A stretch of DNA of 64,000 nucleotides from Candidatus Falkowbacteria bacterium (GTDB lineage Bacteria > Patescibacteriota > Patescibacteriia > Patescibacteriales > UBA12465): positions 8,127 through 72,126 of the forward strand of contig JAPLVZ010000012.1 in NCBI GenBank assembly GCA_026396805.1. Direction: 5' to 3'. The translations under genes were made by a program, and so were the position numbers. Below, piece after piece: positions 33,675-62,262 of this stretch. Numbering within the stretch: the stretch's first letter is position 1; each line of letters starts with the position of its first letter. Below the pieces are notes generated by a model. That model saw only the letters and a list, made by a program, of their open reading frames with translations. It ran no database searches and was not told the DNA's origin.

Positions 33675-33678
33675 TATT

Positions 33679-38588: not shown

Positions 38589-38614
38589 ATTTAATATAAA
38601 GGACTACAGTGACT

Positions 38615-39325: not shown

Positions 39326-39373
39326 TAATTTAAAGTAGCTTACCGCCAAATGTTAAAATGAAATAATTTTTTT

Positions 39374-40210: not shown

Positions 40211-40224
40211 TTTTGAATTATTTT

Positions 40225-41235: not shown

Positions 41236-41289
41236 TGTTTTCTAAATATCATTCGTTTTAATTAGAATTATTTTTAAAATTAATATATT

Positions 41290-42771: not shown

Positions 42772-42833
42772 CTCAGTTCTCATGAAAACGACAAAATTTA
42801 CAAGTATAAAATTTATTTAATTAATAATAATTT

Positions 42834-43940: not shown

Positions 43941-43966
43941 TTCTAGCCTACTCTAAATATTTGCTT

Positions 43967-44884: not shown

Positions 44885-45736
44885 ATGAAAAAAATAGATT
44901 TAAAAAAAATTTTTAAAACCCACGGAAAAGTAGATGATGAAAATGGTATTTTTTTCGAACAACTTGTCGGCTTAGGTTTCAGGAAAATTTCCGATATAAT
45001 AATAAATCGTTTAAAAAATTCTAAAATAACACCAAACCAAATCACTATCGCTCGTTCTTTAATTTTGTTGCCAATAATTTTCTATTTTTTTTCCCGAGGG
45101 GACCAGCTGAGTAGTATTATCGGTTTTGTCTGCGCTATGGTGAATTCTTTATTCGATGTATTGGATGGCCAATTAGCTAGAGCAAAATCAATCGTCAGCA
45201 AGTTAGGCGCTTTTTTGGATGATATCTCAGACCGATTAACTTCCTATTTGGTATTTACCGCCATAATATTAGGGGCCTACCGCGTAACGCAGAATAATAA
45301 TATATTAATAATGGGAGTTTTTGTTTTATTTTTTCATGGGATGCTGGCGGTTATCTCAGAAAAATACGGCCTAGCCTTCGGAGGGTATGAAGCTTTTTTC
45401 GGTCTTAGGATAAAGGAGGCCGTGCTGAATAATGAAAAATCAACCTGGTTAGATAAACTATTCTTAAATTTATTTGGATTTTATTCAGTCCCGTCTTACC
45501 TATTTTTTGCCGTGCGATATCAATTACTGCTAGGCGTAATTTTTAATATTATGCCCTATGTAATTTTTTATTGGGTTTTTGCATTTGCATTTCGTGCCGT
45601 TTTTCTATTTATTTTATATACATATATTGTAAGAGAAAGAAATACGGGAGTTTTTTTTATAAATGAATTGAGGAAAATATACGCCGAAAATATGAAATTA
45701 GAAGAGACAAATTTAGGAAATAAATATGGTGAATAA
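44885..45736 (+). CDS. CDP-alcohol phosphatidyltransferase-family membrane enzyme
   Basis: Signature DVLDGQLARAKSIVSKLGAFLDDISD matches D-x2-D-G-x2-A-R-x8-G-x3-D-x3-D. The protein is polytopic. Confidence 0.85.
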   Translation: MKKIDLKKIFKTHGKVDDENGIFFEQLVGLGFRKISDIIINRLKNSKITPNQITIARSLILLPIIFYFFSRGDQLSSIIGFVCAMVNSLFDVLDGQLARAKSIVSKLGAFLDDISDRLTSYLVFTAIILGAYRVTQNNNILIMGVFVLFFHGMLAVISEKYGLAFGGYEAFFGLRIKEAVLNNEKSTWLDKLFLNLFGFYSVPSYLFFAVRYQLLLGVIFNIMPYVIFYWVFAFAFRAVFLFILYTYIVRERNTGVFFINELRKIYAENMKLEETNLGNKYGE

Positions 45737-47408
45737 TCAAAAAGAGGCCAACCTAAAGATAGTATCGGTTATTATTCCGACTTTAAATCGCGCGACAGAA
45801 GTAGCAGATTGTATTAACTCTGTTTTACAGTCTGAATATCAAGACCTAGAGATAATAGTCGTTGACAATGCCTCGGCTGATAATACCGTGAATTTAATTA
45901 ATGATAATTTTAGTAGTAATTCTAAAATTAAATTAATTAGGAGTAAAACAAATTTAGGCGCTGCGGGAGGCAGGAATTTAGGAGCCAAACAGGCCAGCGG
46001 CGAATATCTACTTTTTGTTGACAGCGATAATATTATTGATAATAGGGCGATAACTAATCTGGTCAGTTTTTTTGAAAAAAACAGTGATTGTGGAATGGTC
46101 GGGCCGTTAATGCTTTATAAAGATGATCCGAACACTATTTGGTTAAGTTTCGCTGATATTAATATGGTGACTAGCCAGGCTAAATATCGGGGAACGGGCG
46201 AAAAAAGATCAAAAGAGTTGCCAGAAATAATAGAAGTCGGCCATTTGCCCAATTGTTTTATGGTCAGCAGGGAAGATTTTGAAAGAGTTAATAAGTTTGA
46301 TGAGCGGTATTTTATCATGTATGAGGAGGCGGATTTAGCGGCTAGAATAAAAAAAATTCTGGGTAAAAAGATTTTTTTGTATTCGCCGGCGCTTGTTTAT
46401 CATAACGTACATTTGCCGAACAAAGATCAACCCGTTAATTTTGGCTTTAACTCGGCATATCGCGCTTATCTAACTGCCAGAAACAGGGTTTATTTCATGA
46501 AAAAGAATGCCTCTTGGCTGCAATTTTTAGTTTTTTCTCTAATTTTTAATCCGCTTATTTTTTTGTATTATGAGTTCATGCTGTTAAAACGTGGTGATTT
46601 TAAAAAAGCCTGGGCGTACGCCAACGGAAACTTTGTTGGTTTTTTAAAGATGCCGAAGATTCAAACGCAGAATATTTCGGCCGAACTTGAATTTTTTGAT
46701 AGAATTGCCGCCGAGCACGGCGGCATGGATACTATCTCTGAAGAAGCTTATGAAATAATTTTTAATAAAATAAAGCCTTATCTGAGAGGCAGTTTATTAG
46801 AGGCGGGATGCGGTTCCGGTCCTTTCGGTTTAAAGATAAAACAAAATTTTTTAAATATTAGTATTACCGGAGTTGATATCAATAAAAAATTTATAGACCT
46901 AGCTGAGAGGACCGGAGTATATAATAAGCTAATTTGCGCCAATTTAGAAAATAAAGATATTTTTTTCTCTAACTCCTTTGAAGTAATTATTTGTCCGTAT
47001 ACCGTTCACCATTTTCCGGACATCAGCCAAGTCATTAATAATTTTTTTTATTGGTTAAAACCGGGCGGTTATTTATTACTAATTGAACCTAATGGCTCTA
47101 ATTTAGTTTTGCGCCTTAGTTATTGGTTAAGAATAATTTTATCAAAATTTATAAATATTAAAACCTGGGCTTCAGTTAATGAATCTCATAAGTCAGTTTC
47201 TGAATTAACGGCTAATTTGAATAATTTTAAAATTTGTTCCATAGATTCTTTCGCCCTTCAGGCCAGGAGAAAAGCCAGATTATCGCTTCTTAACCCTATC
47301 AGTATTTTGGCATTTATTCAAAAAATATTGTTGGAATTTTATCAATATTGTCCGTTTGTTAAATTCGGTGGCTCCGATCTAATTATTATTGCTAAAAAGA
47401 ATGAATAA
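45726..47408 (+). CDS. GT2 glycosyltransferase fused to a SAM methyltransferase
   Basis: N-terminal VSVIIPTLNRATEV, VVDNASADNT and FVDSDN motifs. C-terminal LLEAGCGSGPFGLKI methyltransferase motif I. Confidence 0.8.
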   Translation: MVNNQKEANLKIVSVIIPTLNRATEVADCINSVLQSEYQDLEIIVVDNASADNTVNLINDNFSSNSKIKLIRSKTNLGAAGGRNLGAKQASGEYLLFVDSDNIIDNRAITNLVSFFEKNSDCGMVGPLMLYKDDPNTIWLSFADINMVTSQAKYRGTGEKRSKELPEIIEVGHLPNCFMVSREDFERVNKFDERYFIMYEEADLAARIKKILGKKIFLYSPALVYHNVHLPNKDQPVNFGFNSAYRAYLTARNRVYFMKKNASWLQFLVFSLIFNPLIFLYYEFMLLKRGDFKKAWAYANGNFVGFLKMPKIQTQNISAELEFFDRIAAEHGGMDTISEEAYEIIFNKIKPYLRGSLLEAGCGSGPFGLKIKQNFLNISITGVDINKKFIDLAERTGVYNKLICANLENKDIFFSNSFEVIICPYTVHHFPDISQVINNFFYWLKPGGYLLLIEPNGSNLVLRLSYWLRIILSKFINIKTWASVNESHKSVSELTANLNNFKICSIDSFALQARRKARLSLLNPISILAFIQKILLEFYQYCPFVKFGGSDLIIIAKKNE

Positions 47409-50400
47409 ATACAAAAAGGCGGCTATTATATTATTATTTTTTTTGATTTCAATCTTGATTATAGCCAAGATTGTTTTTAGTCATGAGCTTATCGGTCGTT
47501 CTTTGGATTTTCCCGTTCCCGCTCCCGCCCAGCTAATAAAAAATATTTATTCTTCCAGTTTTTATTCCTGGCGCGGCATATCTAATGAGGGGGGGAGAAA
47601 TACGTTTTCCGCCACGCTGATTCCAATAAATTTCATTTTATACTTACCAACGCTTTTTAATGCCAGCTCTTGGTTTGTCGGCCGATACCAGATAGTTTTA
47701 ACCTTATTTTTGGGGATGTTTTTTTTCTATATTTTAGCATGGCGTTTATCGAGAGATTATGATATCAAGGAAAATTATAAAATTTTAATTTCCATATTCG
47801 GTGCGTTATTTTTCGTCTTAAATAATTATTTCTTTTGTGAAATAATGTTCGGAAGCAACGTTATGTATTTGACGTTCGCTTTTTTCCCCTTGTTAATTTA
47901 TTCATTGATTTTGTATTTTGAAGATCAAAAGAAAATATTTTTTTTCCTCTCGCTTCTTTCTTTAATTATAATTTCTTCTACTCTACAGCATCTAGTCCTG
48001 GCTTATATAATTTTATTTTTTATCGCCGCTTTTTATAAACAAAAAAAATATTTTTTTATCTTCGGTTTTATCCATTTCTTCTTAAGTCTACATTGGATAT
48101 TGCCTTTAGCGTTTGCTTCTAATGAAGTGCGGACGTTGGAACTGGCCCCTGACTACACGGTTAATCTCCTTGTCTCCTCGCAACATTTTTTAAGCGCCGT
48201 CGTCAATAGTGATTATTTTTGTAGAAGAAATTTATATAATCTGGCCTTAAATAGCGCCTGGCTGTCCGCTGTTTGGGCATTCAATGCCTTTCTTCTGGTA
48301 ATTTTTTCTCTTTTTGCTTTGCTTAAATTGAAGTTTTTTAAAAAGGAACATAAAAAGTTAATAATATTTTCAACCTCATTTTTTTTGGTGGCACTCTTAT
48401 TTACAAAAGGAGGTCGACCACCGCTTGGGGAGATTGTTCTTTATTTATATAATCATATATCATTATTCAACCTCTATCGATCAATCCAGCATTATATCGG
48501 CTTTTATGTCATCGGTGTTTCAATTTTATTTGTTTTTTCCAGTATTTTCTTTGTTTCTAAAAGTAAAAAATGGCTAGTAGTGATTGGCGCGCTGGTTTTA
48601 ATTAACGCTATGCCCTGGTGGTATACTTTAGACATGGGAACCCAAAATATTTATCAGGGGGGGATGCCCAGCTTCTTGGGCCTATATAACCTAACCCCGG
48701 GCAATTGGGAAATGTATAATTTATCTAATAAATTTTTAAATTTTGCTCTTTTACCGATTCCTCCTGGGTATTCAATTAATTTTGAGGCCGTGGGAGCTAA
48801 TAAGTATAGAACGCAAGGCGGGGACGCCGGGCTGGCTTTTGGCAATAAGAAATTCTATGCCGCCGAAAGTAGTTCCATTTTATTAAAAGATACTCTCAAT
48901 AAACTGGAAAATGAGATGTATTCCAACGCCGAATTTTTCAATGACTATAAAAATCTATTTGCTTTATTGAATATTAGGTATTTTGTTTTGCGCGCCGACA
49001 CTAAACCAAATTTTTCCATCAACACCAGATTATTTAATGTTGATAAGGTGCAAGAAGCGATTAGAAACAGTCATATTTTTACCGCCCAAAATACATACGA
49101 TTTCATTACTATTTTAAAGAATGGCGATTTCTTGCCGCAATTTTATGTTCCCAAGATTATAATTCAGACCGATTCTTTTTCCGGATTACTCCCCCTGACG
49201 GACTATAGTCAAGATTTCCTGCCTCGTTTCGCAGTTTTTGATGATTCTATCAATGGTAAAAATTTTCCCTCACAATATATTTCCAACCAGAATCTCAATG
49301 TTGACGCAAGATATTCCACCAATACGAAAAAAATAATTTTTTCAACTGGATTATCGGCGGCGAGTCCTGATAATGGAAATATTAAAAAAGATGTTTACTA
49401 TTTGGCTGGCACCATCGGCGATGTCATGCAAGTCGGGCCCAGCCGGCTTTTTACGATCAAAGAAACATTGAACGAAAGAATGCCAGTGGAATATTCATAT
49501 AGCAACTTAAAATTATATAAAGTTAAAAATTCTCAAAATTTACTTAAAGACGGCTCTTTCGAAAACGGTTTTTGGCGGCCAAAAGTATTTGATTGCACGA
49601 ACGATAAAGAGTATGACCAAACTTTATCAATGAAAATTTCTGATGATGCCAGCGCCGGGAAACACTCTTTAGAATTATCATCGGGTCAACATAGCGCTTG
49701 TACTTCGCGCGTATTTCCCATTAACTTGAAACAAGGGAAATTTTACAAGCTTTCTTTCGATTATAAGAATACCAAAGGCGGACAAGCGCAATATTTTTAT
49801 CAATTATCAGGAAAAAATGGAAATTATCCGTTCGCCGAAACAATTAACGCGAAAAATAATGATTGGAATAAGCTAGAAACGCTGATTGAGGCGAAAGAGA
49901 ATATCAATCAAATTATATTATTCTTTTATTCTCCCCCGGGTGTAGTAGAGAATATTAATGAATATGACAACATTGAGTTGGTGGAATTAACCGAGCCAGA
50001 ACCAAGCAATTTTTTTAACTATTTACAACAAAATAAAGAAATCGAGACCCCCTACTTGGAATTCAAAAAGATCAATCCGACTAAATACCGAGTGGAAATT
50101 CATCAGGCTAAGGGCGATTTCCCCTTGGTTTTTAGCGAGGGTTTTCATAATAGTTGGGCAATATACTTAGGAGACAGAGAAGAAACAAATATTGATAAGA
50201 CGAAGTTAGCCGATTATAAAGAGTTGGACGGCAACGAGGGTGATCAGGCCAGCCCCGCTGAACTTCAGGATTTTATTAATCAAGGATTAATTAGTTCTTT
50301 GGGAAACGGGAAAGAGAAAGAGGCTGCGCACTATAAATGGGGAGGCAATAAAGAGACGCTTGATTATATTGAGAAATACAAAATCGCTTTTATCTCCAAA

Positions 50401-50727
50401 AATTTTCAGGATACGATTCAGAACGATAATTTACCGAATGGACATATTTGGGACACTTGGTTTAAAAACCCTTTGCCGGAAGAAAATCATTTGATGGTTA
50501 ATGGTTATGCAAATAGCTGGGTAGTTGAAACAGAAAAAATTTGTAAAGAGAATCCTGACAAATGTATAAAAAATTCCGACGGTACTTATGACTTTGAACT
50601 GGTAATTGAATTCTGGCCGCAAAGATTGTTCTATCTGGGCCTAGGAATCTCCGGCGCCACCTTGTTGTTATGCCTTGGTTATTTGGTGTATAATTGGGGA
50701 ATTAGAAAGAAAAAATTAAAACAATAA
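47401..50727 (+). CDS. Very large polytopic membrane protein with an extracytoplasmic CBM-like domain and a C-terminal anchor
   Basis: ~1108 aa. The first ~400 aa hold more than 10 TM helices. A large soluble region follows, including LLKDGSFENGFW...HSLELSS (carbohydrate-binding-module-like), then a final TM helix. The ATG at 47401 overlaps the previous stop by 8 nt. Confidence 0.65.
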   Translation: MNKYKKAAIILLFFLISILIIAKIVFSHELIGRSLDFPVPAPAQLIKNIYSSSFYSWRGISNEGGRNTFSATLIPINFILYLPTLFNASSWFVGRYQIVLTLFLGMFFFYILAWRLSRDYDIKENYKILISIFGALFFVLNNYFFCEIMFGSNVMYLTFAFFPLLIYSLILYFEDQKKIFFFLSLLSLIIISSTLQHLVLAYIILFFIAAFYKQKKYFFIFGFIHFFLSLHWILPLAFASNEVRTLELAPDYTVNLLVSSQHFLSAVVNSDYFCRRNLYNLALNSAWLSAVWAFNAFLLVIFSLFALLKLKFFKKEHKKLIIFSTSFFLVALLFTKGGRPPLGEIVLYLYNHISLFNLYRSIQHYIGFYVIGVSILFVFSSIFFVSKSKKWLVVIGALVLINAMPWWYTLDMGTQNIYQGGMPSFLGLYNLTPGNWEMYNLSNKFLNFALLPIPPGYSINFEAVGANKYRTQGGDAGLAFGNKKFYAAESSSILLKDTLNKLENEMYSNAEFFNDYKNLFALLNIRYFVLRADTKPNFSINTRLFNVDKVQEAIRNSHIFTAQNTYDFITILKNGDFLPQFYVPKIIIQTDSFSGLLPLTDYSQDFLPRFAVFDDSINGKNFPSQYISNQNLNVDARYSTNTKKIIFSTGLSAASPDNGNIKKDVYYLAGTIGDVMQVGPSRLFTIKETLNERMPVEYSYSNLKLYKVKNSQNLLKDGSFENGFWRPKVFDCTNDKEYDQTLSMKISDDASAGKHSLELSSGQHSACTSRVFPINLKQGKFYKLSFDYKNTKGGQAQYFYQLSGKNGNYPFAETINAKNNDWNKLETLIEAKENINQIILFFYSPPGVVENINEYDNIELVELTEPEPSNFFNYLQQNKEIETPYLEFKKINPTKYRVEIHQAKGDFPLVFSEGFHNSWAIYLGDREETNIDKTKLADYKELDGNEGDQASPAELQDFINQGLISSLGNGKEKEAAHYKWGGNKETLDYIEKYKIAFISKNFQDTIQNDNLPNGHIWDTWFKNPLPEENHLMVNGYANSWVVETEKICKENPDKCIKNSDGTYDFELVIEFWPQRLFYLGLGISGATLLLCLGYLVYNWGIRKKKLKQ

Positions 50728-50744
50728 ACTAATAAATTAATTTT

Positions 50745-52061
50745 ATGGATAAACTAAAAAAAGAAAAAATCGTTTACGTCGGCATGAGCGCTGATTTAAT
50801 TCACCCGGGCCATTTAAATGTGATTAATCACGCTAGGAGCCTTGGCGACGTCATTGTCGGATTATTAACTGATAAAGCCATCGCTAGTTATAAACGTCTG
50901 CCATTTTTAACCTATGAACAAAGAAAAGTAATCATGGAGAATTTAAAAGGGGTAATTGAGGTTATTCCTCAGGATACTTTAGATTATGTCCCTAATTTAA
51001 GGAAAATAAAACCGGATTATGTGGTCCATGGCGATGACTGGAAAGAGGGCACGCAGAAAGAAACTAGGCAGAGGGTTATAGAAGCTTTAAAAGAGTGGGG
51101 AGGAGAATTAGTGGAACTGCCGTACACAAAAGGGATTTCTTCAACTATGCTTCATGAAAAAATTCATGAGATTGGGACCACGCCAGAGATCAGGATGAAA
51201 AGATTAAAGAGATTATTAGAAGTAAAACCAATTCTCCGGATAATGGAGGCTCATAATGGCTTGACCGGTCTTATTGTAGATAATCTTAAGATAAAAGATG
51301 AAAAAGGCATTAAAGAATTTGATGGGATGTGGCTAAGCAGTCTGACTGATTCGACCGCTAAGGGTAAGCCCGATATTGAATGCGTTGATTTGACCTCCCG
51401 ATTAAGCACGGTGAACGATATTATGGAAGTGACGACTAAGCCGATAATTTTCGACGGCGATACCGGTGGCATACCAGAACATTTTGTTTTTGGGGTTAAA
51501 ACTATGGAAAGAATGGGAGTTTCGGCTGTTATAATAGAGGATAAGATCGGCTTGAAGAAAAATTCATTGTTTGGGACTGATGTTGAACAAACTCAAGATA
51601 GCATCGATAGTTTTTGTCATAAAATTTCCGTAGGTAAAAAAGCCCAGGTAACCGATGACTTCATGATTATTGCCAGAATTGAGAGCTTGATTTTAAAGAA
51701 GGGTATGGCGGACGCGCTTAAGCGCGCCGAGGCGTATATCGCGGCCGGTGCTGATGGCATAATGATTCATAGCCGGGAAAAGGACCCCACAGAAGTTTTG
51801 GAATTTTGTCGGGAATATAAAAAATTTAAAAAAATAGTCCCGCTCGTGGCCGTTCCGTCAAGTTATAATCAGATTTATGAAAAGGAATTAATGGAAGCCG
51901 GAGTGAACATCGTAATTTACGCGAATCATTTATTGCGTAGCGCTTATCCGGCGATGGTAAATACGGCTAAATCAATCTTATTAAATGAAAGAGCGCATGA
52001 ATGCGAGAGCGCCTGCATGTCTATAAAGGAGATATTAACTTTAATTCCGGGAGGACAATAA
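50745..52061 (+). CDS. Bifunctional cytidylyltransferase / phosphoenolpyruvate phosphomutase (Fom1-like architecture)
   Basis: The N-terminal ~135 aa carry the HxGH-type cytidylyltransferase motifs ([14 protein letters not shown] and TKGISSTML). The C-terminal ~295 aa are PepM-like ([16 protein letters not shown], and the PepM-specific [10 protein letters not shown], i.e. EDKx5NS). Confidence 0.85.
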
Positions 52062-52062
52062 T

Positions 52063-53190
52063 ATGATTAACTGTGAAAAATTCTATCAATATTTATTAGA
52101 AAAAAATATAAATTTTTTTACCGGCGTTCCGGACTCTCTTTTGAAAGATTTTTGTTCTTATATTATGGATAACGCCGGACAGAACCATGTAATTAGCGCT
52201 AATGAAGGGAATGCCGTGGCCTTAGCGGCCGGACATTATTTAGCTTCCGGGAATATTGGCTTAGTCTATATGCAAAATTCCGGCATTGGGAATGCTATTA
52301 ATCCTTTAGCATCGCTCGTTGACCCGGAGGTATATAGTATACCCGTCTTAATGATAGTCGGTTGGCGCGGCGAGCCTAATGTCAAGGATGAACCCCAGCA
52401 TATCAAGCAGGGGAAAGTTACTACCGGTCTATTCGATGCCTTATCTATTCCTTATGATATTTTACCCGCCTCTTTAGATGAAGCCAAAGTTTGTTTAGAT
52501 AAGGCTTGTAATTATATGCGTGAGAACAGTTCCCCCTACGTTATTATCATCAAAAAAGATACCTTTGAAAAATATTCTTTACAGAATAAAATAAAAAATA
52601 ATTATCCGGTATCCAGAGAAGAGGCGATTAAACGTATCGTAGATACCTTATCGCCAGAAGATATTATAGTTTCTACGACCGGCAAGGCCTCGCGTGAACT
52701 CTTTGAATACCGGGATTATTTACATCAAGGGCATGATAAAGATTTTTTGACTGTCGGCTCAATGGGCCATTCTTCCCAAGTAGCGCTGGGCATCGCTCTG
52801 GAAAAGAAGAACAGAAAAGTTTATTGTTTGGATGGTGACGGAGCGGCGATTATGCATATGGGCGCCTGGGCGATTATCGGCTCAAAAGCGCCGGAAAATT
52901 TCCGTCATATAATCTTGAATAATGGCTGTCATGAATCAGTCGGCGGCCAGCCGACGGCGGGATTTAGCATTAATATGCAGATGTTGGCCCAGGCTTGCGG
53001 TTATAAAAATATTTATCTGGCCGAGACTTTAGAAGAAATTGAAAGTAAAATTAATTTACTAAAAAATAGCGTCGGGCCGTCTTTACTGGAGATAAGAATA
53101 AACAGCTCATCTCGAGAAAATTTAGGCCGACCCAACATTAGCCCGGTCGATAATAAAAAAGATTTTATAAAATTTATTCGAAATAGTTAA
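52063..53190 (+). CDS. Phosphonopyruvate decarboxylase (ThDP-dependent)
   Basis: 375 aa. The N-terminus FFTGVPDSLLKDF and the ThDP motif GDGAAIMHMG...NN are present. It starts 1 nt after the PepM fusion stop. Confidence 0.82.
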   Translation: MINCEKFYQYLLEKNINFFTGVPDSLLKDFCSYIMDNAGQNHVISANEGNAVALAAGHYLASGNIGLVYMQNSGIGNAINPLASLVDPEVYSIPVLMIVGWRGEPNVKDEPQHIKQGKVTTGLFDALSIPYDILPASLDEAKVCLDKACNYMRENSSPYVIIIKKDTFEKYSLQNKIKNNYPVSREEAIKRIVDTLSPEDIIVSTTGKASRELFEYRDYLHQGHDKDFLTVGSMGHSSQVALGIALEKKNRKVYCLDGDGAAIMHMGAWAIIGSKAPENFRHIILNNGCHESVGGQPTAGFSINMQMLAQACGYKNIYLAETLEEIESKINLLKNSVGPSLLEIRINSSSRENLGRPNISPVDNKKDFIKFIRNS

Positions 53191-53200
53191 GTAAGAAAAA

Positions 53201-54337
53201 ATGCCACAGAAAAATTATATTGGCATAGGCGCAATCAAAAATTTGGCCGGATATCTTCGCCAGAATAAGGTGAAGAAAGTTTTTTTAGTATCGGGAAAGA
53301 AATCTTATAAGCTTTGCGGCGCGAAAAAGATATTGGATCCGATTTTAAAAAAATATTCCGTTTTAAACTTTACTGATTTTTCGTCCAATCCGAAACTATT
53401 GGCTATTGAAAAAGGCGCGAAGTTGTTTAAAAAATATGATCCGGACTTGGTTATCGCTATCGGAGGCGGCAGCGCGATCGATATGGCTAAGGCCATAAAT
53501 ATTTTAGCCGTTCAAGACGGCAATCCGCGAGATTATGTTTTAAAAAAGAAAGAAATAACAAAATCAGGAAAAAAATTGATTGCCGTCCCCACTACGGCTG
53601 GTACGGGAAGTGAGGCAACCTGTTTCGCCGTGGTTTATATTAATAAAGTTAAATATTCTTTAAAGCATAAATTTATATTGCCAACTTGTTTTATTATCGA
53701 TCCGCGATTTACCTTTAATTTAAATCAAAAAATCACGGCCGAGACGGGCGCGGACGCCCTAGCGCAAGCAATCGAATCATATTGGAGCGTTAATTCTACG
53801 GCTGAGTCAAAAAAATATGCGGCGCGAGCGATCAGGATAATTTTAAAAAATTTATATAAAGTCGTGAATAATCCGGATCAGAAATCAAGACTGAAAATGA
53901 GCCGAGCGGCCAATCTTTCCGGAAGAGCCATAAATATAACAGAAACAACGGCTTGTCACGCTATTTCTTATCCAATTACTTCTTATTTCGGCATAGCGCA
54001 CGGGCAGGCCGTGGTTATGACTTTAAGTAGTCTTTTAAATTATAATAATTTAGTGTCTCAGGCGGATGTTTTAGACAAGCGTGGAGCGCTTTATGTTAAG
54101 AGGGTTATAAAAGATATAATTAAATTATTGGGTGCTCATAATTGTCAAAATGCTCAAGAAAAAATTGAAAGTATTTTAAAGGGAGTCGGTTTAGCTACTC
54201 GATTTCGTGAATTAAATATTTTTAGAGAAGATTTAAAAATAATTTTTAAAAATAGTTTTAATCCTGAGAGGATGAAAAATAACCCACGTTTAGTGACTAA
54301 AAAAGAATTATGGAAAATGTTATTAAATTTATTATAA
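53201..54337 (+). CDS. Group III iron-containing alcohol dehydrogenase (candidate phosphonoacetaldehyde reductase)
   Basis: 378 aa with GGGSAIDMAKA and metal-binding His motifs. The assignment rests on its position directly after PepM and Ppd. Confidence 0.75.
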   Translation: MPQKNYIGIGAIKNLAGYLRQNKVKKVFLVSGKKSYKLCGAKKILDPILKKYSVLNFTDFSSNPKLLAIEKGAKLFKKYDPDLVIAIGGGSAIDMAKAINILAVQDGNPRDYVLKKKEITKSGKKLIAVPTTAGTGSEATCFAVVYINKVKYSLKHKFILPTCFIIDPRFTFNLNQKITAETGADALAQAIESYWSVNSTAESKKYAARAIRIILKNLYKVVNNPDQKSRLKMSRAANLSGRAINITETTACHAISYPITSYFGIAHGQAVVMTLSSLLNYNNLVSQADVLDKRGALYVKRVIKDIIKLLGAHNCQNAQEKIESILKGVGLATRFRELNIFREDLKIIFKNSFNPERMKNNPRLVTKKELWKMLLNLL

Positions 54338-54502
54338 ATTAGAACTGGGGGTGGGATTTTGTGAGGAGGAAGAAAGATTTGATAGAGGTTGAGGAGGTTA
54401 GTGTTATTGAAGGTTAGGGGGTGGCGCTATGTGTCCGCTTGAGGGTCTGAGATGGTGCTGGGCGATTGTTTACGCAAGATAGGACTAAATTACATCAAAT
54501 TT

Positions 54503-55243
54503 ATGACTAATACTTACAAAATTAAAGATAAACTATTAATAATTGGCGACGGTCGTTATAGTAATGAAGAAATCATGGCATTATACAGAGAAATAGAAAA
54601 TCACATTTTTCGTTCGGAATTTAATGAAGATTTAAATGCTTGTCTTGATGATTGCTTACATAAGATTAAAGCAACCTGGTATCATCTTTCTACTATTAAA
54701 CAAGAGGTTGAAGAAATAATGACGCACCCGAAACATTATTTGCAGCAACAAGTTTTTCAGTCTTATCCAAAAATAGAATTTCAAGATAATCGTCTTATTT
54801 ATGAGATAGAAGCTTTTTTATTTCAGGTAAAAAGTAATTTGGATATTATCGTACAAGTCCTAACTTTCTTTTATCCTAATTTAAAAAGTGAAAATGCCGA
54901 TAGGCCTAATGGTTTTGATGGTAAAAAGAGGCTAGCTGGTTACAAAACAATTGAAAAGTTAACGACAGCTGGAGAGGCTAGATTAGCTGATTATTTTAAA
55001 GGGGAGGTAAGTGATTGGATTCAAGAAATGGTTGATTTGCGTAATACTGTCACTCACAAAACTCAACTGGAAAACTACCAGTCATTTTTAATAACGGAAA
55101 TGTTATCTAACGAGCTTGAAATAAAAACACCACTAATGCCTTCGGGGCAAAAAGTGGAAGTTTATTGTCAATTAGTTTTTGATAAATTATTAAATTTTTA
55201 TCGGACAGTGTTTGTAGATATTATTGGCGAATATAAAAAATAG
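54503..55243 (+). CDS. Hypothetical protein with a HEPN-like Rx4H motif
   Basis: ~246 aa, predicted mostly helical. MVDLRNTVTHK contains R-N-x3-H, as in Abi/HEPN families. The ATG at 54503 is preferred. Confidence 0.4.
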   Translation: MTNTYKIKDKLLIIGDGRYSNEEIMALYREIENHIFRSEFNEDLNACLDDCLHKIKATWYHLSTIKQEVEEIMTHPKHYLQQQVFQSYPKIEFQDNRLIYEIEAFLFQVKSNLDIIVQVLTFFYPNLKSENADRPNGFDGKKRLAGYKTIEKLTTAGEARLADYFKGEVSDWIQEMVDLRNTVTHKTQLENYQSFLITEMLSNELEIKTPLMPSGQKVEVYCQLVFDKLLNFYRTVFVDIIGEYKK

Positions 55244-55395
55244 TAAATTTAGAAGAATAAAGTGAAAAATTATAAAATAGAAGAAATAGAAACAGATCCT
55301 TCGCTCCGCTCAACTCGCCTCGCTTCGCTGGCGAAGCGGGAATGGCAAAGAAAGATTTTATAAAAACTTTATAAATATTTTATTTAATATTAGCC

Positions 55396-55424
55396 TTGAT
55401 AATGATTATTAAACCTGCTATAAT
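55396..55424 (+). promoter_or_regulatory. Sigma-70-type promoter (TTGATA, 17-nt spacer, TATAAT) for the Bro-N-like genes
   Basis: -35 at 55396-55401 and -10 at 55419-55424. The upstream 30 nt is 29/30 identical to the module at 62206-62235. Confidence 0.6.
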
Positions 55425-55453
55425 CAGGTGATAATAATTAATTATCTAAATTT

Positions 55454-56161
55454 ATGGCTAAAAATGACAAACAAAATGAAATTAATAAAATAGTCTTGTT
55501 TAAAGGGCAAAAGATTAGGCGAATTATTTTTAATGATGAATGGTGGTTTTCTGTTGTTGATGTTTGCGGAGTGTTGGTGGAAAGTACAAACGCTAGAGAT
55601 TATTGGTATAGAGTAAAAAGTAGAGTTGAAGATGAAGAAAAACTTCAACTGTCGACAATTTGTCGACAGTTGAAGTTAGAGTCGCCTGACGGCAAAATGC
55701 GTGAAACCGATTGCGCAAATACCGAAGGATTATTCCGTATTATTCAGTCTATCCCTTCGCCGAAAGCTGAACCGTTTAAACGTTGGTTGGCTAAGGTCGG
55801 CTATGAGCGAGTTCAAGAAATTCAAGATCCAGAATTAGCGACTAAAAGAACTAGAGAACTCTATAAGCTAAAGGGTTATAGCGATTCCTGGATTGAAAAG
55901 CGGCTGCGCGGTATCGCTATTCGCGAAGAATTAACTGATGAATGGAAAAATAGAGGGGCGAGAGAAAAAAAGGATTATGAAATTTTAACGGCGGAAATAT
56001 CAAAAGCGACTTTTGGATTAACCCCGGTTCAGTACAAAAAAGTTAAGAGTCTGGGCAAAGAGAATTTGCGCGATCATATGGAAGATATTGAAAAACAATC
56101 TGACGCTAAAGTTGCCAGTTCGAATAATTTTTTAGGGCGGAAAAATCACCAGCTAGAATGA
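55454..56161 (+). CDS. Bro-N / DinD-like protein (copy A, with an internal deletion near the C-terminus)
   Basis: 235 aa with WWFSVVDVCGVL, DGKMRETDCANTEGLFRIIQSIPSPKAEPFKRWLAKVG. Relative to copy B it lacks ~45 aa between NLRDHM and the C-terminal tail. Confidence 0.8.
   Translation: MAKNDKQNEINKIVLFKGQKIRRIIFNDEWWFSVVDVCGVLVESTNARDYWYRVKSRVEDEEKLQLSTICRQLKLESPDGKMRETDCANTEGLFRIIQSIPSPKAEPFKRWLAKVGYERVQEIQDPELATKRTRELYKLKGYSDSWIEKRLRGIAIREELTDEWKNRGAREKKDYEILTAEISKATFGLTPVQYKKVKSLGKENLRDHMEDIEKQSDAKVASSNNFLGRKNHQLE
55641..55677. repeat. Intragenic hairpin in Bro-N-like copy A: aacttcaactgtcgacaa t ttgtcgacagttgaagtt
   Basis: Perfect 18-bp arms. The frame was checked, and it encodes KLQLSTICRQLKL. 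Confidence 0.92.
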
Positions 56162-56203
56162 AGAGGAAATTGTTTAAGCGATAATAATTAATTATCTGAA
56201 TTT

Positions 56204-57046
56204 ATGGCTAAAAATTTTAACAAAAACGTCGATAAGAACATCGCCTTATTTGGAAATGATCCGGTCCGTAGAATATGGGATGAAAAGGAAGAACGATGGT
56301 ATTTTAGCGTCGTAGACGTGGTACGAGTTCTCGCGGATAGTTCTCGGCCCGACGCTTACTGGGTCGCGATGAAAGCTCGGGTAAAAAGTGATGATGGAAT
56401 TCAGTTATCTACAATTTGTAGGCAACTGAAGCTGGAGGCTTCTGATGGTAAAAGATATCAGACTGATTGCGCTAATACCGAAGGCGTACTTCGTATCATT
56501 CAATCAATCCCTTCCCCTAAAGCCGAACCCTTTAAGCGCTGGCTGGCTAAGGTCGGACAGGAACGGATACGGGAGATAAACGATCCGGAGATTGCTTTAA
56601 ACCGTTCTCGGGAGCTTTGGCAAAAGCATGGCCGAAGCGAGTCGTGGATTCAACGAAGGATGATGGGGCAAGAAACTAGAAATAAACTGACTGATTATTG
56701 GAGCGAACACGATGTTAAAAAGGGTGATGAGTTTGCGATTCTGACTAATATTATCCACGAAGAATGGAGTGATTTATCGGTGAAAAAGCATAAAGATTTG
56801 AAAGGTTTGAAAACGCAGAATTTACGCGACCACATGAGCGAAGAAGAATTAATTTTCTCCGCCTTAGCCGAAATGTCTACTAGAAAAATCGCGGAAACGG
56901 AACAGACTGCCGGTCTGGAGGCTAATAAAATTCCTGCCAAGAAAGGCGGCAAAATCGCGAAAGATGCGAGAACTGCTTTAGAAGAGAAAACCGGCCAAAG
57001 CGTGATTACCGGTCGGAACTTTTTACCGAAGTTAAAAAATAAATAA
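56204..57046 (+). CDS. Bro-N / DinD-like protein (copy B)
   Basis: 280 aa with the same motif set as copy A. The 5' leader ataataattaattatctgaatttatg is nearly identical to that of copy A. Confidence 0.8.
   Translation: MAKNFNKNVDKNIALFGNDPVRRIWDEKEERWYFSVVDVVRVLADSSRPDAYWVAMKARVKSDDGIQLSTICRQLKLEASDGKRYQTDCANTEGVLRIIQSIPSPKAEPFKRWLAKVGQERIREINDPEIALNRSRELWQKHGRSESWIQRRMMGQETRNKLTDYWSEHDVKKGDEFAILTNIIHEEWSDLSVKKHKDLKGLKTQNLRDHMSEEELIFSALAEMSTRKIAETEQTAGLEANKIPAKKGGKIAKDARTALEEKTGQSVITGRNFLPKLKNK
56400..56430. repeat. Intragenic hairpin in Bro-N-like copy B: ttcagttatctacaa t ttgtaggcaactgaa
   Basis: Of 15 arm positions, 13 are Watson-Crick, one is G-U and one is a mismatch. It sits at the same codon position as in copy A, with different outer arm sequence. 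Confidence 0.85.
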
Positions 57047-57076: not shown

Positions 57077-58756
57077 ATGAACTTATTAAATAAACTAAAA
57101 CTTAATCGTCTTTCGGCCTCTTTCTGGGGCTATGTTTTGGTTATTTTAGCGATCGTTTTGCCTTGGTTTTTAAGATCCGGCTATCTATTCTTGACCGATA
57201 ATGTCTGGGGGCCGATTATTAAGCTTGATTGGACCGGCTCCTGGTTCTTCCTTAAGCTTTTGCTTTCGGGCTTATCTTTTATTTTTCCGGTTGATTTTTT
57301 GGAAAAGATTTTTATCAGCGGCGTTTTAGTTCTAATTTTACTGGGCGGCCGGATGTTCGTTAAAGCGGTAACTTCGACGGTATCCCCGGGTCTGGTTTTT
57401 GTTCTGAGTTTATTCGCCCTGTTCAATCCTTTTGTTTACGATCGAGCGCTTTACGGTCAATCCGGCGTTCTTATCGCTTACGGCTTTTTATTATTTGCTG
57501 TCGCCTATTTATTAAGAACTTGGCGAACTTTAGATTTTAAGAATCTGCGTCTCGCCGCGGTTTTTAGCGCTTTAGTTTTAATGTTTGCCGTCCATTTTAT
57601 TTTTTTTCTTACCCCTTTTTGTTTATTATTTTTAATCGGGATGTTTTTAAGGCGCCGGGAAATAAAAGCGGCGGGCGGGCTAAAGAAATTTTGGCTGGCT
57701 TTATTATTTTCTATTGTTATTGTTTTAACTATTAATGCCAATTGGCTGGTTGCTTTAACGCTCAAAGCTTCGCCTTTAGCTAATTTTGTCCAGCAGGGGA
57801 TTACCAGCCAGGATTTAGTCGCTTTTCAGACCGCGGGTAAGAATGGATTGGAGACCTTTACTAACGTTTTATTAATGTCCGGTTTCTGGGGTAAGGATCA
57901 ATATCGTTATTTCGATCTGACGACCGCGCCCGGTTGGCAAAGAAGTTTTATTCTCTTAACCCCGCTTATTTTTTATGGCGTTTACTTAAGTTTTAGAAAA
58001 CGTAGTCGCGGCGAAAAAATTTTAAGCGCCGGTTTGTTTCTTATTTTCGCTTTAGCGGTTTTTTTGGCCGTCGGAATTAAGTCGCCGGTTACGCGCGGTC
58101 TGACTATGTTCCTTTATGATCATCTGCCCTTATATAAAGGTCTGCGGGAACCGCAGAAATGGGTCGCGGTTATTATTCCGGTTTATCTTTTTTACCTGAC
58201 GCTCGGAGTGGCGCGTTTAGCGAAAGTTAAGATTATTCTTAATCATAAAATTTTAAGTGGTATATTTTTAGCCGCCGTGATTATCATGCAGGCGCCGTCC
58301 TTACTTTGGGGATTTAATCGCCAGGCTAAAGCCACGCCGTATCCTAGCGATTGGTACGAAGCCGATAATTTTTTAATTGACCGTACACCGCAGTCTTATA
58401 ACTGTGATGATAAGATTATTTTTTTACCTTGGCACGCATATATGAGTTTTAACTGGGTCGGGAAGATTATCGCTAATCCGGCCGCGACTTTTTTTTCCTG
58501 TCCGATTTTGAGCGGTACGAATATGGAATGGGGCGGAATTTATGATAATAGTCAAGATCCCGACGGTGCGGTAATCGCCACTTGGCTGGCGCTTAAAGGG
58601 CAGGGCGGCTTGCCGGCTATTTCCGGGAACGCGCCGCGCTATATTATTCTGGCGAAAGAAGTGGATTTTAATTCTTATTTATGGTTAAATAAGATTTCCT
58701 ATTTAAGCTTAATCAAAGAAACGCCGACTCTCTTAATTTATGAAGTTAAATTTTAG
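57077..58756 (+). CDS. Polytopic membrane protein (possible GT-C-type glycosyltransferase)
   Basis: 559 aa. About 12 TM helices are followed by a soluble C-terminal domain. No catalytic motif was verified. Confidence 0.5.
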   Translation: MNLLNKLKLNRLSASFWGYVLVILAIVLPWFLRSGYLFLTDNVWGPIIKLDWTGSWFFLKLLLSGLSFIFPVDFLEKIFISGVLVLILLGGRMFVKAVTSTVSPGLVFVLSLFALFNPFVYDRALYGQSGVLIAYGFLLFAVAYLLRTWRTLDFKNLRLAAVFSALVLMFAVHFIFFLTPFCLLFLIGMFLRRREIKAAGGLKKFWLALLFSIVIVLTINANWLVALTLKASPLANFVQQGITSQDLVAFQTAGKNGLETFTNVLLMSGFWGKDQYRYFDLTTAPGWQRSFILLTPLIFYGVYLSFRKRSRGEKILSAGLFLIFALAVFLAVGIKSPVTRGLTMFLYDHLPLYKGLREPQKWVAVIIPVYLFYLTLGVARLAKVKIILNHKILSGIFLAAVIIMQAPSLLWGFNRQAKATPYPSDWYEADNFLIDRTPQSYNCDDKIIFLPWHAYMSFNWVGKIIANPAATFFSCPILSGTNMEWGGIYDNSQDPDGAVIATWLALKGQGGLPAISGNAPRYIILAKEVDFNSYLWLNKISYLSLIKETPTLLIYEVKF

Positions 58757-60026
58757 ACAATCATTGAGCGATAAATTTATCCGGGGAACGTTCTGGCTGA
58801 CGGCCGTCAGTTTTATCAGTTCGGCTTTTAATTATTTTGTCCATCCGATTTTGACCCGCCATCTCACCATTGCCGAATATGGCGATTTTCAAGCGCTATT
58901 ATCTTTCGCTACGATTATCGGTATTATCGGCGCCGTCGTTGCTACCGTGTTGACGAAAGAAATATCGCTTCTTAACACCGCGCGCCCGGAAGAAATTAAT
59001 GCTCTGCGCCGGCGCGCCTCTTCTCGATTATTATTCGTCGGCCTAGCTGTCCTGGCTTTAATTATTATTTTTTCCGGTCCTTTAAATAATCTATTTAAAA
59101 TTAGTGAACCCGCGGTTTTGGTTATTTCTTCTTTAAGTCTGCTTTATATTTTTTCATTAGTTGTTAATCGCGCGACTTTAACCGGCGTGCAGGCTTTTTC
59201 CGCTTTATCTTTAAGCAATTTACTTGATGCCGTCGGCCGTTTAGCGCTGGTTATACTTTTAGTGGTAATTTTTCCTTGGGGACTTTTGGGCGCCGCCTAT
59301 TCTTTGAGTTTTGCTAGCCTGGCCGCTTTTCTAATCAGTTTCTGGCAGATTAAAAAATTAAAATTGCCAGCGGCCGTCGCCGGTTTTAAGCCATCACTCC
59401 GAACTATGTGGCGTTACGCTTTACTTGTTTTATGGTTCACGGCTCTTTATCAGTTTTTCTATAATTTCGACATGCTTCTAGTCAAATCATTTTTCAGTCC
59501 GGAAGAAGCCGGGCTGTACGGGGCGCTGCTCACTATCGGTCGGATTATTTATTTTGTGGGCGGCTCTATACCATTAGTGATGTTTCCGGTTTTAGCCGGC
59601 CTGCAAGGCGATAAGAGTTCACGGCGCTATAAAGTTTTAGGGAAGTCATTATTATTAATGTCCGGCCTGACTATTCCCGCTTATCTCATAATCTCTCTCT
59701 GGCCGGAATTTATTATTAGAATCGTTGTCGGAGTTAAGTATTTAAGCATCGCGCCATATTTGCCGGGTTTCGCTTTGGTTATGCTGTTTTTAACTTTATT
59801 AATGGTTTTGTCTCAATACTTTTTAGCTTTGGCCAAACGTCGCGGCTTAGTCGTTTTAACCTTAGCCGCGTTAGGGGAAATTATTTTGTTAATGTTCTGG
59901 CATGATAATATTTTTGAAATTATTCGCTCGCTCGGTTTGGTTTTCGGCGGGGCGTCACTGGCGCTGATTATTCTGCTTGTTTCTGATTTCCGGCGCGCCC
60001 GGGCATTAGAGCGAAAATATGAATAA
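58740..60026 (+). CDS. MOP-superfamily polysaccharide/oligosaccharide flippase (Wzx-like)
   Basis: 428 aa with ~12 TM helices. The N-terminus SDKFIRGTFWLTAVSFISSAFNYF is typical of polysaccharide biosynthesis flippases. Confidence 0.7.
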   Translation: MKLNFRQSLSDKFIRGTFWLTAVSFISSAFNYFVHPILTRHLTIAEYGDFQALLSFATIIGIIGAVVATVLTKEISLLNTARPEEINALRRRASSRLLFVGLAVLALIIIFSGPLNNLFKISEPAVLVISSLSLLYIFSLVVNRATLTGVQAFSALSLSNLLDAVGRLALVILLVVIFPWGLLGAAYSLSFASLAAFLISFWQIKKLKLPAAVAGFKPSLRTMWRYALLVLWFTALYQFFYNFDMLLVKSFFSPEEAGLYGALLTIGRIIYFVGGSIPLVMFPVLAGLQGDKSSRRYKVLGKSLLLMSGLTIPAYLIISLWPEFIIRIVVGVKYLSIAPYLPGFALVMLFLTLLMVLSQYFLALAKRRGLVVLTLAALGEIILLMFWHDNIFEIIRSLGLVFGGASLALIILLVSDFRRARALERKYE

Positions 60027-60750
60027 AAGAATTGATTTTAAAATTTTGTGGGAAGAACTGCGTGAAAAAATCAGGGAATTTTATCCTTATTTTTTCGGTT
60101 TTTATCTTTTGTCCCTAGTGGTTTCCATTTTTTCCAAAACTTGGAAGAGCTTTTTCTATTGGCCGGCGTTTCATGGCGCGATTATTATTTTTACCGTTCT
60201 TTTTTTACTGACTTTTAAATTGAATTGGCAGCCAAATTTTAAATTAAATTTAAACTTGAAAAATCTTAAACCGCGTTTAAATTTAAAAGAAAATTATTTA
60301 TTATGGCGCGCCGTTTCTTTGAAAGTTTTTAAATTAATGATCATTTTAGCCAAAGAATTTTTTAACGTAGCCGGACGCGTAATCAAAAATTATTTTTTTT
60401 TTATTAAGAAAAAAATTTCCGCGGTCTCCAAGCGTTCCTGGTTGAAAATTATAGTTATTGTTATTTTTCTTCTCCTAGCCTTATTTGAGGGAATCGGTGT
60501 TCTTGATTTTATTGTTTTATTTTACGCTCTAATTTCTTTCCTTTTCGTTCTTGATAGCCGCGCCGCCGCCGGTCTGGCTTTGATTTTATTAGCCTCTTGT
60601 CCCTTCTGGCTGATTTTTAAGAAAGATATTTTAGCCGAAAGTGCGGCTATTTACGCTTATTATTTCCTGATTATTACGGTTCTGACGCAGATTCGGGAGC
60701 TAAAAAAAGAGAAAAACGCTTCAATTCCCGAGACTGAAGATAAAATTTAG
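60019..60750 (+). CDS. Membrane protein of unknown function
   Basis: 243-aa ORF with several TM helices. It overlaps the previous gene by 8 nt. Confidence 0.5.
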   Translation: MNKRIDFKILWEELREKIREFYPYFFGFYLLSLVVSIFSKTWKSFFYWPAFHGAIIIFTVLFLLTFKLNWQPNFKLNLNLKNLKPRLNLKENYLLWRAVSLKVFKLMIILAKEFFNVAGRVIKNYFFFIKKKISAVSKRSWLKIIVIVIFLLLALFEGIGVLDFIVLFYALISFLFVLDSRAAAGLALILLASCPFWLIFKKDILAESAAIYAYYFLIITVLTQIRELKKEKNASIPETEDKI

Positions 60751-60940
60751 AGGTCGGAGAATCGACTCCTTATTGCTTAAATGTTAGTTGTTTTGACCTG
60801 TGGATAACTCAGAGGTAAATTGTTTGTTAAAGTTAGATAAAAGTTGTATAATTAAATTATAAGTCGGATAAAAAATATTATAATTTTTGATAAATAATTA
60901 TAAAAATTACGTAATTTTGTACTTATTTATTTTTAGAACA

Positions 60941-62256: not shown

Positions 62257-62262
62257 GTGGGG

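Follow-up and report, generated by a model that had tools for sequence, protein, structure and literature searches.

We analysed a stretch of 64,000 nucleotides of contig JAPLVZ010000012.1, from an assembly of Candidatus Falkowbacteria bacterium (GCA_026396805.1). This whole stretch is called the window below, and its open reading frames (ORFs) of at least 100 aa are the set that was screened for protein families. Between positions 50745 and 54337 it contains three tightly packed genes, in which a first-pass annotation, made from the sequence alone, had recognised a complete module for phosphonate synthesis. The ORFs were found exactly there: they are intact and co-directional, with gaps of 1 nt between the first and the second and 10 nt between the second and the third, and family models match all three products end to end. 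The first gene encodes a cytidylyltransferase fused to a phosphoenolpyruvate (PEP) mutase (PepM), the second a phosphonopyruvate decarboxylase (Ppd), and the third an iron-type alcohol dehydrogenase (ADH). Coordinates of these genes and of their surroundings are given in Table 1.

The two domains of the first protein are easily told apart. Pfam delimits a CTP_transf_like domain at aa 15-138 (PF01467, 57.5 bits for a cut-off of 21) and a PEP_mutase domain at aa 155-412, and the TIGR02320 equivalog model for PEP mutase scores 413.9 bits, above its cut-off of 319.55. The motif EDKx5NS, which has been defined as PepM-specific (PMC6697681), is located at aa 265-274, and it is invariant in 81 homologues. 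In a HMMER alignment to the mussel enzyme (1M1B), 14 of the 15 active-site positions checked were identical, including all acidic, basic and motif residues; at the 15th, G47 of mussel PepM is replaced by Ser. Residues D210, D237, D239, E265, K271, N273, S274, R311 and H342 of the window protein are the counterparts of mussel D58, D85, D87, E114, K120, N122, S123, R159 and H190, which we take, from the mussel PepM structures, to serve Mg2+ and substrate binding. We conclude that the PepM domain is a true PEP mutase, predicted to interconvert PEP and phosphonopyruvate. The N-terminal domain has HPGH, a form of the HxGH motif, at aa 20-23 and GISST at aa 130, and aligns without gaps to the cytidylyltransferase domain of Fom1 (PDB 5X3D), with 92 identical residues among 137 (67%, E = 3e-62). 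The fusion announced in the first-pass annotation, with both of its motifs, was thus recovered by domain models, motifs and equivalog score alike. An NCBI entry identical to this protein, filed under Candidatus Falkowbacteria, is named phosphoenolpyruvate mutase by the Prokaryotic Genome Annotation Pipeline (PGAP).

The second protein covers the full TIGR03297 model (1-360 of 360) with 495.8 bits, for a cut-off of 312.5. It carries the thiamine pyrophosphate (TPP) motif GDG-x26-NN at aa 258, and is named phosphonopyruvate decarboxylase at NCBI (MCX6794952.1). The third matches Fe-ADH (141.9 bits) and ADH_Fe_C (110.7 bits) over its full length, in keeping with the group III ADH proposed earlier, and PGAP names it phosphonoacetaldehyde reductase (MCX6794953.1). 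Of the four canonical metal ligands, D185, H253 and H267 are conserved, and GGGS, D94 and K97 are invariant in the family. As a separate observation, an invariant Ser-Tyr replaces, in the window protein and in 65 homologues from similar cassettes, a His that is conserved in standard Fe-ADHs.

Other identities were tried for the first two proteins. PepM as a phosphonopyruvate hydrolase (137.8 bits, cut-off 374), as a methylisocitrate lyase of the PrpB type (93.9 bits, cut-off 354) or as a carboxyPEP mutase (40.3 bits, cut-off 420) was ruled out. The same holds for Ppd as a sulfopyruvate decarboxylase, with 121.5 bits for the ComE-type model (cut-off 221.5) and 94.1 for the ComD-type model (cut-off 147.95). 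The doubts that the first-pass annotation had itself raised, i.e. a PepM domain belonging to a rival clade, catalytic residues lost, or a second enzyme acting on sulfopyruvate, were all followed up, and nothing of the kind was found.

Together, the three genes would provide a route from PEP to the CMP-activated form of 2-hydroxyethylphosphonate (2-HEP, or HEP). The PepM domain would convert PEP into phosphonopyruvate, and Ppd would decarboxylate the latter to phosphonoacetaldehyde, drawing the unfavourable PepM equilibrium forward. The ADH would then reduce phosphonoacetaldehyde to 2-HEP at the expense of NAD(P)H, and the cytidylyltransferase domain would join 2-HEP with CTP to yield CMP-HEP. 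The fosfomycin pathway of Streptomyces employs enzymes of the same three kinds, a cytidylyltransferase-PepM fusion, a Ppd and a group III ADH: Fom1, Fom2 and FomC convert PEP to 2-HEP-CMP (PMC8158854). This precedent, added to the similarity with 5X3D, agrees with the Fom1-like route drawn at first sight. That 2-HEP, and not 2-aminoethylphosphonate (AEP) or phosphonoformate, is the compound joined with CTP is a prediction based on the adjacent ADH, the lack of an AEP transaminase and the similarity to Fom1. As had been stated earlier, none of the ORFs screened in the window belongs to the AEP transaminase (Aminotran_5), HppE/cupin or C-P lyase families.

How widespread is this arrangement? A scan of one genome per GTDB species gave 386 relatives of PepM, and the best 80 of the 386 were analysed; with the window, this makes 81 loci, designated by the letter L and a number. 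These best 80 relatives are 66-89% identical to the window protein. They come from Bacteroidota, Ignavibacteria, Spirochaetia, Clostridia, Gamma- and Deltaproteobacteria, Planctomycetota, Elusimicrobia, Omnitrophota, Cloacimonadota, Methanomassiliicoccales and Woesearchaeota, cultured strains included, and three of them (L001-L003) are from genomes of the candidate phyla radiation (CPR). The order PepM-Ppd-ADH is kept in 66 of the 81 loci, and Ppd directly follows PepM in 75. In 6 loci, of the Clostridia type, an Aminotran_5 transaminase (AEP-type) occupies the slot of the ADH. This alternation in one and the same slot is good contextual evidence that the third gene encodes an enzyme acting on phosphonoacetaldehyde.

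In neighbour-joining trees of each of the three proteins, the window groups with the CPR genomes L001-L003, to which it is 86-89% (PepM), 75-80% (Ppd) and 65-75% (ADH) identical. An Ignavibacteria metagenome-assembled genome (MAG), L004, comes next in all three trees, and a Woesearchaeota MAG, L080, in those of Ppd and ADH. Since the trees agree, the genes of the cassette share one history, and a CPR clade nested within a multi-phylum family fits a single horizontal acquisition, which suggests that the cassette was gained in CPR by horizontal transfer. More generally, the cassette is of a widespread, widely exchanged and already annotated kind, with established chemistry, fusion architecture and database names. 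According to published surveys, 59.5% of Ppm (i.e. PepM) enzymes are fusions and 23.6% of all Ppm are fused to PF01467, as in Fom1 (PMC6697681), while the class with Ppm, Ppd and Fe-ADH, predicted to make HEP, accounts for 8.5% of ppm neighbourhoods (PMC8942020). The first-pass annotation had found such chemistry remarkable in an organism of this type; given a cassette conserved in 66 loci of many phyla, whose three proteins PGAP already names, this was an overstatement. The Woesearchaeota locus L080 (4759-9378) has extra genes: a stand-alone cytidylyltransferase upstream of the fusion and, between PepM and Ppd, a 412-aa protein without NCBIfam match and a radical SAM (S-adenosylmethionine)/SPASM protein. 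These may represent additional steps of phosphonate tailoring.

The best candidate for transferring HEP from CMP-HEP appears to be a membrane enzyme of the CDP-alcohol phosphotransferase family (CDP-OH_P_transf, PF01066), encoded upstream of the cassette. It scores 64.6 bits for a cut-off of 22, has about 5 transmembrane (TM) segments, and displays the complete signature D-x2-DG-x2-AR-x8-G-x3-D-x3-D (DVLDGQLARAKSIVSKLGAFLDDISD). Its candidacy is based on gene linkage and on similarity to AF2299 and IPCT/DIPPS, its closest solved relatives (4O6M, E = 4e-11; 4MND, 6e-07). The donor of IPCT/DIPPS is a soluble CDP-alcohol, and IPCT/DIPPS and AF2299 enzymes make di-myo-inositol phosphate, a soluble precursor of an osmolyte. 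As in the window, a cytidylyltransferase is paired there with a CDP-alcohol phosphotransferase, but the enzyme of the window would use a CMP-phosphonate as donor and a glycan or a lipid as acceptor.

Gene linkage was followed across loci, and a search that started from the transferase added L088, L089 and L090. Among the 81, a CDP-alcohol phosphotransferase with the full motif lies near the module in the window, L001, L002 and L080 only; in L001, its gene is immediately upstream of PepM. A contig from JGI 3300049914 (L089, 9001-13410) carries relatives of the window's DegT protein (75%), family 2 glycosyltransferase (GT2, 66%), double methyltransferase (65%) and CDP-alcohol phosphotransferase (49%), and directly after the latter comes a HEP module of another lineage (PepM 65%, Ppd 31%, ADH 39%). 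It looks as if, within the same type of glycan cluster, an equivalent module had taken over the function here, which suggests selection on phosphonate decoration itself. On a contig from JGI 3300009034 (L088, 9001-11419), the gene directly after the orthologous transferase (55%) encodes an IPCT-like NTP transferase, which matches the IPCT half of the bifunctional IPCT/DIPPS model, and an HD-domain-like protein and a major facilitator superfamily (MFS) transporter are present where the PepM module would stand. No PepM gene was found in the 18.8 kb fetched of this 25.7-kb contig. What the L088 cluster attaches may be another CDP-activated head group, possibly a scavenged one. Taken with the module-bearing loci, L088 indicates that this clade of transferases is routinely accompanied by an enzyme dedicated to making a CMP-activated donor. 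A short contig (L090) also has the transferase among the same glycan genes. In other phyla, the recurrent neighbours of the cassette are TagF-like glycerophosphotransferases (about 24 loci) and LicD (8 loci), both of them users of CDP-activated alcohols, as well as sugar-nucleotide enzymes and glycosyltransferases.

We consider it probable that the three genes form a self-contained, mobile cassette leading from PEP to CMP-HEP, and that the CDP-alcohol phosphotransferase most likely moves HEP to a lipid-linked glycan or possibly to a lipid. The sequences establish to which families the proteins belong, that catalytic residues and gene order are conserved, that the host is a CPR bacterium and that linkage to CDP-alcohol-type transferases recurs, while the substrates, the transferase and the acceptor are those that we infer. 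In this last part of the pathway, a hydroxyl group on a lipid-linked glycan (less likely on a lipid) would receive HEP from CMP-HEP, and CMP would be released. A Wzx-type flippase and large polytopic membrane proteins encoded nearby would then take care of flipping and of assembly at the surface. We also propose, quite tentatively, that in CPR and DPANN organisms the CMP-HEP cassette was recruited specifically to the CDP-alcohol phosphotransferase, which might then be an unrecognised phosphonyl transferase. In these episymbionts with ultra-small cells, it would put a phosphatase-resistant head group with a C-P bond on the glycan of the envelope or on lipids obtained by scavenging.

Several observations weigh against this pathway. 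Concerning the donor, the best NCBIfam model for the ADH is TIGR03405 (phosphonate-associated Fe-ADH), with 190.2 bits, below its cut-off of 423.7; the assignment as phosphonoacetaldehyde reductase consequently rests on context (the slot after Ppd and the swap with the AEP transaminase) and on the PGAP name. The fourth metal ligand position of this ADH is Gln189, where the canonical His is expected. Of 66 ADHs from such cassettes, 43 have Gln at this position and 23 have His; the closest structure, 6JKO, has Gln as well. Fusions of PF01467 with Ppm are found in AEP clusters too (PMC8942020), and for this reason the HEP specificity of the cytidylyltransferase rests on context and on the similarity to Fom1. 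Concerning the transfer, two genes lie between the candidate gene and PepM in the window, and the candidate accompanies a module in only five loci (window, L001, L002, L080 and L089). CPR relatives have other enzymes in its place, a TagF-like enzyme in L003/L085 and a sulfatase-family protein, together with a Wzm/Wzt exporter, in L086; the assignment of the transferase is thus not universal.

The cassette belongs to a larger set of genes, co-directional and tightly packed from 38.6 to 54.3 kb. Pfam agreed with the first-pass annotation on what these neighbours are: GT2s, methyltransferases, a CDP-OH_P_transf protein, a B12-binding radical SAM enzyme and a Polysacc_synt flippase. For the glycan-building genes that precede the transferase, orthologues (60-75%) are found in L089, contiguous there with a CDP-alcohol phosphotransferase and a HEP module, and a 61% orthologue of the GT2-methyltransferase fusion directly follows the transferase in L090. 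Immediately upstream of PepM is a 1112-aa protein whose N-terminal part has about 12 TM segments; it also has a large external domain, with CBM_4_9, and one TM segment at the C terminus. Partial homologues are found beside the module in L001, L003, L085 and L090, and it is presumed to be a glycan-handling enzyme. When the part from 44 to 57.5 kb was scanned for promoters and terminators, the counts differed from those of shuffled controls by no more than about two standard deviations, and no operon boundary stood out convincingly.

The module had been described as standing at the end of the glycan cluster. Downstream of the ADH there is actually a 2.7-kb insertion, which looks like a mobile-element remnant and which is absent between the ADH and the homologue of the 57077 gene in the CPR relatives L001-L003. 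As the insertion is missing in these relatives, and the glycan genes continue from 57077 on, the place of the module is within the cluster rather than at its end. The 559-aa membrane protein encoded from 57077 has homologues (52-67%) that in L001 and L002 come directly after the ADH and in L003 and L085 are close by; homologues of the flippase (58-62%) are present in L001-L003. Apart from CBM_4_9 in the 1112-aa protein and a weak MmpA-family match in the 559-aa protein, no family was recognised in these two membrane proteins.

Table 1. Genes of the cassette and of its surroundings, in window positions.
Feature	Position	Strand	Size and family evidence
Fom1-type cytidylyltransferase (aa 1-143) fused to PEP phosphomutase (aa ~151-438)	50745-52061	+	438 aa; Pfam PF01467 + PF13714; TIGR02320
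Phosphonopyruvate decarboxylase (Ppd), TPP-dependent	52063-53190	+	375 aa; TIGR03297
Group III (Fe-type) alcohol dehydrogenase, putative phosphonoacetaldehyde reductase making 2-HEP	53201-54337	+	378 aa; Fe-ADH + ADH_Fe_C
Two GT2 genes and B12-binding radical SAM enzyme with intein	31725-36621	+	Pfam
Methyltransferase, two GT2s, double methyltransferase, DegT-type sugar aminotransferase (PseC/LegC-like), GT2	38609-44875	+	Pfam
CDP-alcohol phosphotransferase-family membrane enzyme, candidate HEP transferase	44885-45736	+	PF01066
GT2-methyltransferase fusion	45726-47408	+	Pfam
Polytopic membrane protein, directly upstream of PepM	47389-50727	+	1112 aa; CBM_4_9; TM scan
Insertion: one protein without family match and two tandem Bro-N domain genes, outside the pathway	54452-57046	+	Pfam
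Polytopic membrane protein	57077-58756	+	559 aa; ~11 TM segments; weak MmpA-family match, 76 bits for a cut-off of 210
Wzx/Polysacc_synt-type flippase	58740-60026	+	PF01943

The first alternative to a glycan acceptor is a phosphonolipid. The CDP-alcohol phosphotransferase would then put HEP on diacylglycerol or another membrane lipid, as choline and ethanolamine phosphotransferases do with their own head groups, and thereby give a phosphatase-resistant head group to a host that is probably a lipid scavenger. The family does consist of membrane enzymes of phospholipid head-group chemistry, and phosphonolipids are the predicted products of large groups of ppm neighbourhoods that have phospholipid genes of the CDP-OH type (PMC8942020). 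The 'Burkholderiales_CDP-OH' families of that survey, also with phosphonolipids as predicted products, have, like the window, a Ppm-cytidylyltransferase fusion near phospholipid-synthesis genes, as implied by the CDP-OH in the name of the group, but these are AEP systems (AEP transaminase plus oxygenase), whereas the window has an ADH, no AEP transaminase and a glycan context. The transferase of the window sits among GT2s, a sugar aminotransferase, a flippase and polysaccharide-type membrane proteins; phosphatidyl-transferring enzymes match it far more weakly than AF2299 and IPCT/DIPPS do; and in other phyla the cassette accompanies TagF- or LicD-type enzymes, which decorate polymers. We regard a phosphonolipid as unlikely.

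A glycan or lipid decoration, rather than an antibiotic, had been favoured in the first-pass annotation, and this fits all the CPR- and DPANN-type contexts examined. A fosfomycin-like small-molecule pathway, in which the radical SAM enzyme would act as Fom3 and convert CMP-HEP to CMP-2-hydroxypropylphosphonate, appears very improbable. Genes similar to those for Fom1, Fom2 and FomC do share a 23-kb stretch with a B12 radical SAM gene, and Fom3 is a class B radical SAM enzyme acting on CMP-HEP (PMC8158854). However, neither an HppE/Fom4-like protein nor any other fosfomycin-specific family was detected in any ORF of the window, where the complete set of the pathway (Fom1-4, FomC and FomD) is thus not present, and the radical SAM gene is 14 kb upstream, with unrelated genes in between. 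Unlike the fosfomycin genes, those of the window form a surface-glycan operon, not an antibiotic cluster. CMP-HEP would be the donor of a transfer in the window, where it is a transient handle for methylation in the fosfomycin pathway.

The radical SAM gene itself (33679-36621) is interrupted by a 474-aa intein at aa 245-718. The intein is located inside the Cx4Cx2C Fe-S motif, so that splicing is required to restore the cluster site. Removing it in silico left a 506-aa protein, which stayed below the cut-off of every model: 129 bits with HpnJ (cut-off 577.6), 69 with the PhpK family (cut-off 600), and a weak match to the BchE-like model; matches in the PDB were weak as well. No specific similarity was seen to the phosphonate-pathway class B radical SAM models compared, which did not include Fom3. 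Within 8-10 kb of the module in 86 other module-bearing loci, no clear homologue of the enzyme was found; weak class B matches, 23-24% identical, are near the module in L080 and L089. An intein-free orthologue (53%) is encoded in L088, with no PepM gene in the 18.8 kb fetched. A Fom3-like role was rejected, given the scores below cut-off, the lack of conserved linkage to PepM and the L088 orthologue. We conclude that the radical SAM enzyme belongs to the glycan-cluster type and not to the phosphonate module. The class B enzyme listed as module context in the first-pass annotation is thus a true member of the cluster, but no functional tie binds it to the module. Two other genes of the window contain inteins, making three in 64 kb: GyrA (11832-15662; Intein_splicing and LAGLIDADG, aa ~154-581) and a UvrD/AddA-type helicase-nuclease (21475-25656; Hint/Intein_splicing, aa ~300-662).

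A further proposal is that HEP is an intermediate, processed before its attachment, for instance to methylphosphonate or hydroxymethylphosphonate. HEP precedes methylphosphonate in Nitrosopumilus (PMC8942020), and the window has genes without a family match (54452-55243 and 60019-60750) in which such an enzyme might be sought. Against this, none of the ORFs of the window matched a cupin or dioxygenase family, and the unassigned gene at 54452 is within the insertion that the CPR relatives lack. We give this proposal very little chance.

The left half of the window holds housekeeping genes, coding for three tRNA synthetases, GyrA, the UvrD/AddA-type helicase, RuvB, RmuC and RadC. The named best hits of RuvB are from Patescibacteria/Falkowbacteria only, with 83-91% identity. 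The G+C content is 43.1% in this half, 34.9% in the glycan genes (38.6-50.7 kb) and 38.5% in the module. Independent sequencing runs yielded an unchanged order of genes over a 21-kb region around the module, and the exact protein is present on 12 contigs. On the strength of the RuvB hits, the re-assembly and the organism name at NCBI, the CPR attribution, to which the first-pass annotation had also come, is sound. An error of binning or assembly, by which the module of another organism, for instance a member of the Bacteroidota or Ignavibacteria, would have come to be placed in this genome, is rejected. The nearest non-CPR PepM proteins (72-76% identical) are from these phyla, and the G+C content of the glycan region is lower than that of the housekeeping half. 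However, RuvB with its Patescibacteria/Falkowbacteria hits, the intein-bearing GyrA and several tRNA synthetases are on the same contig, the 21-kb region was re-assembled, and three other CPR genomes carry copies 86-89% identical (on contigs of 13.7, 173 and 376 kb) with CPR-specific flanks conserved. Scans of the window with Rfam and for tRNAs found nothing.

The independent assemblies of the same population were not entirely alike. In L081/L082 (6656-9983), the 1112-aa membrane protein (47389-50727 in the window) is split into products of 429 and 687 aa, and in L083 (546-2027), the double methyltransferase (window 41290-42771) is split into products of 257 and 235 aa. Such splits suggest either that frameshifts in surface-glycan genes vary from strain to strain or that the assemblies contain errors.

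Among known systems, the fusions of PF01467 with Ppm and the pathways of nucleotidyl-activated phosphonyl tailoring (Pnt) surveyed by Rice et al. 2019 (PMC6697681) resemble the window in their fusion class and in having a phosphonate that is CMP-activated and then moved to the cell surface. The characterised PntC differs: it is a PF12804 enzyme acting on AEP, with LicD-like transferases, whereas the window has PF01467, a predicted HEP substrate and a CDP-OH_P_transf partner. In the PhpC-type neighbourhoods of Li & Horsman 2022 (PMC8942020), Ppm, Ppd and Fe-ADH together predict HEP, as in the window. The CPR clusters have other glycan genes and another transferase than these neighbourhoods, the methylphosphonate cluster of Nitrosopumilus among them. 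HEP-glycan conjugates have been isolated, including a HEP-bearing exopolysaccharide of Stackebrandtia nassauensis (PMC8942020). This last survey covered complete RefSeq bacterial genomes, archaea and viruses, and makes no mention of Patescibacteria or candidate phyla. A literature search whose coverage excluded subscription-only papers brought up no description of phosphonate biosynthesis for CPR, Patescibacteria or Falkowbacteria.

What is new here is modest, and consists of the pairing with a CDP-alcohol phosphotransferase in CPR- and DPANN-type loci, and of the apparent replacement of the HEP module within one type of glycan cluster. As the core chemistry, the architecture and the annotation were already established, the gain is incremental: a phosphonate specialist would not be surprised, and for a CPR specialist it is a useful small addition. 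If the product is real, a Falkowbacteria-type CPR clade invests PEP, CTP and NAD(P)H in decorating its surface with a C-P-bonded group, which would give the almost uncharacterised envelopes of these episymbionts one concrete chemical trait. The taxonomic range of phosphonoglycan or phosphonolipid producers would also be widened, because the published surveys used complete RefSeq genomes. Finally, the pairing with the CDP-alcohol phosphotransferase offers a candidate for a poorly understood reaction, the transfer of phosphonates off their CMP carrier.

Several other genes are interspersed in the low-G+C glycan region: a RhuM gene (28849-29793, minus strand), a YhcG PDDEXK nuclease (30590-31585), a DUF4143/AAA_14 ATPase (36807-37940) and a truncated RhuM fragment (38071-38562). 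Genes of mobile or defence type thus seem to have been inserted repeatedly. A short way downstream of the flippase, an ORF at 60887-61822 encodes a thrombospondin type 1 domain (TSP1_ADAMTS, E = 1e-11) and has homologues in L001 and L002. Beyond it, two neighbouring genes, at 62257-62796 and 63266-63799, code for NYN-domain proteins (predicted RNases).

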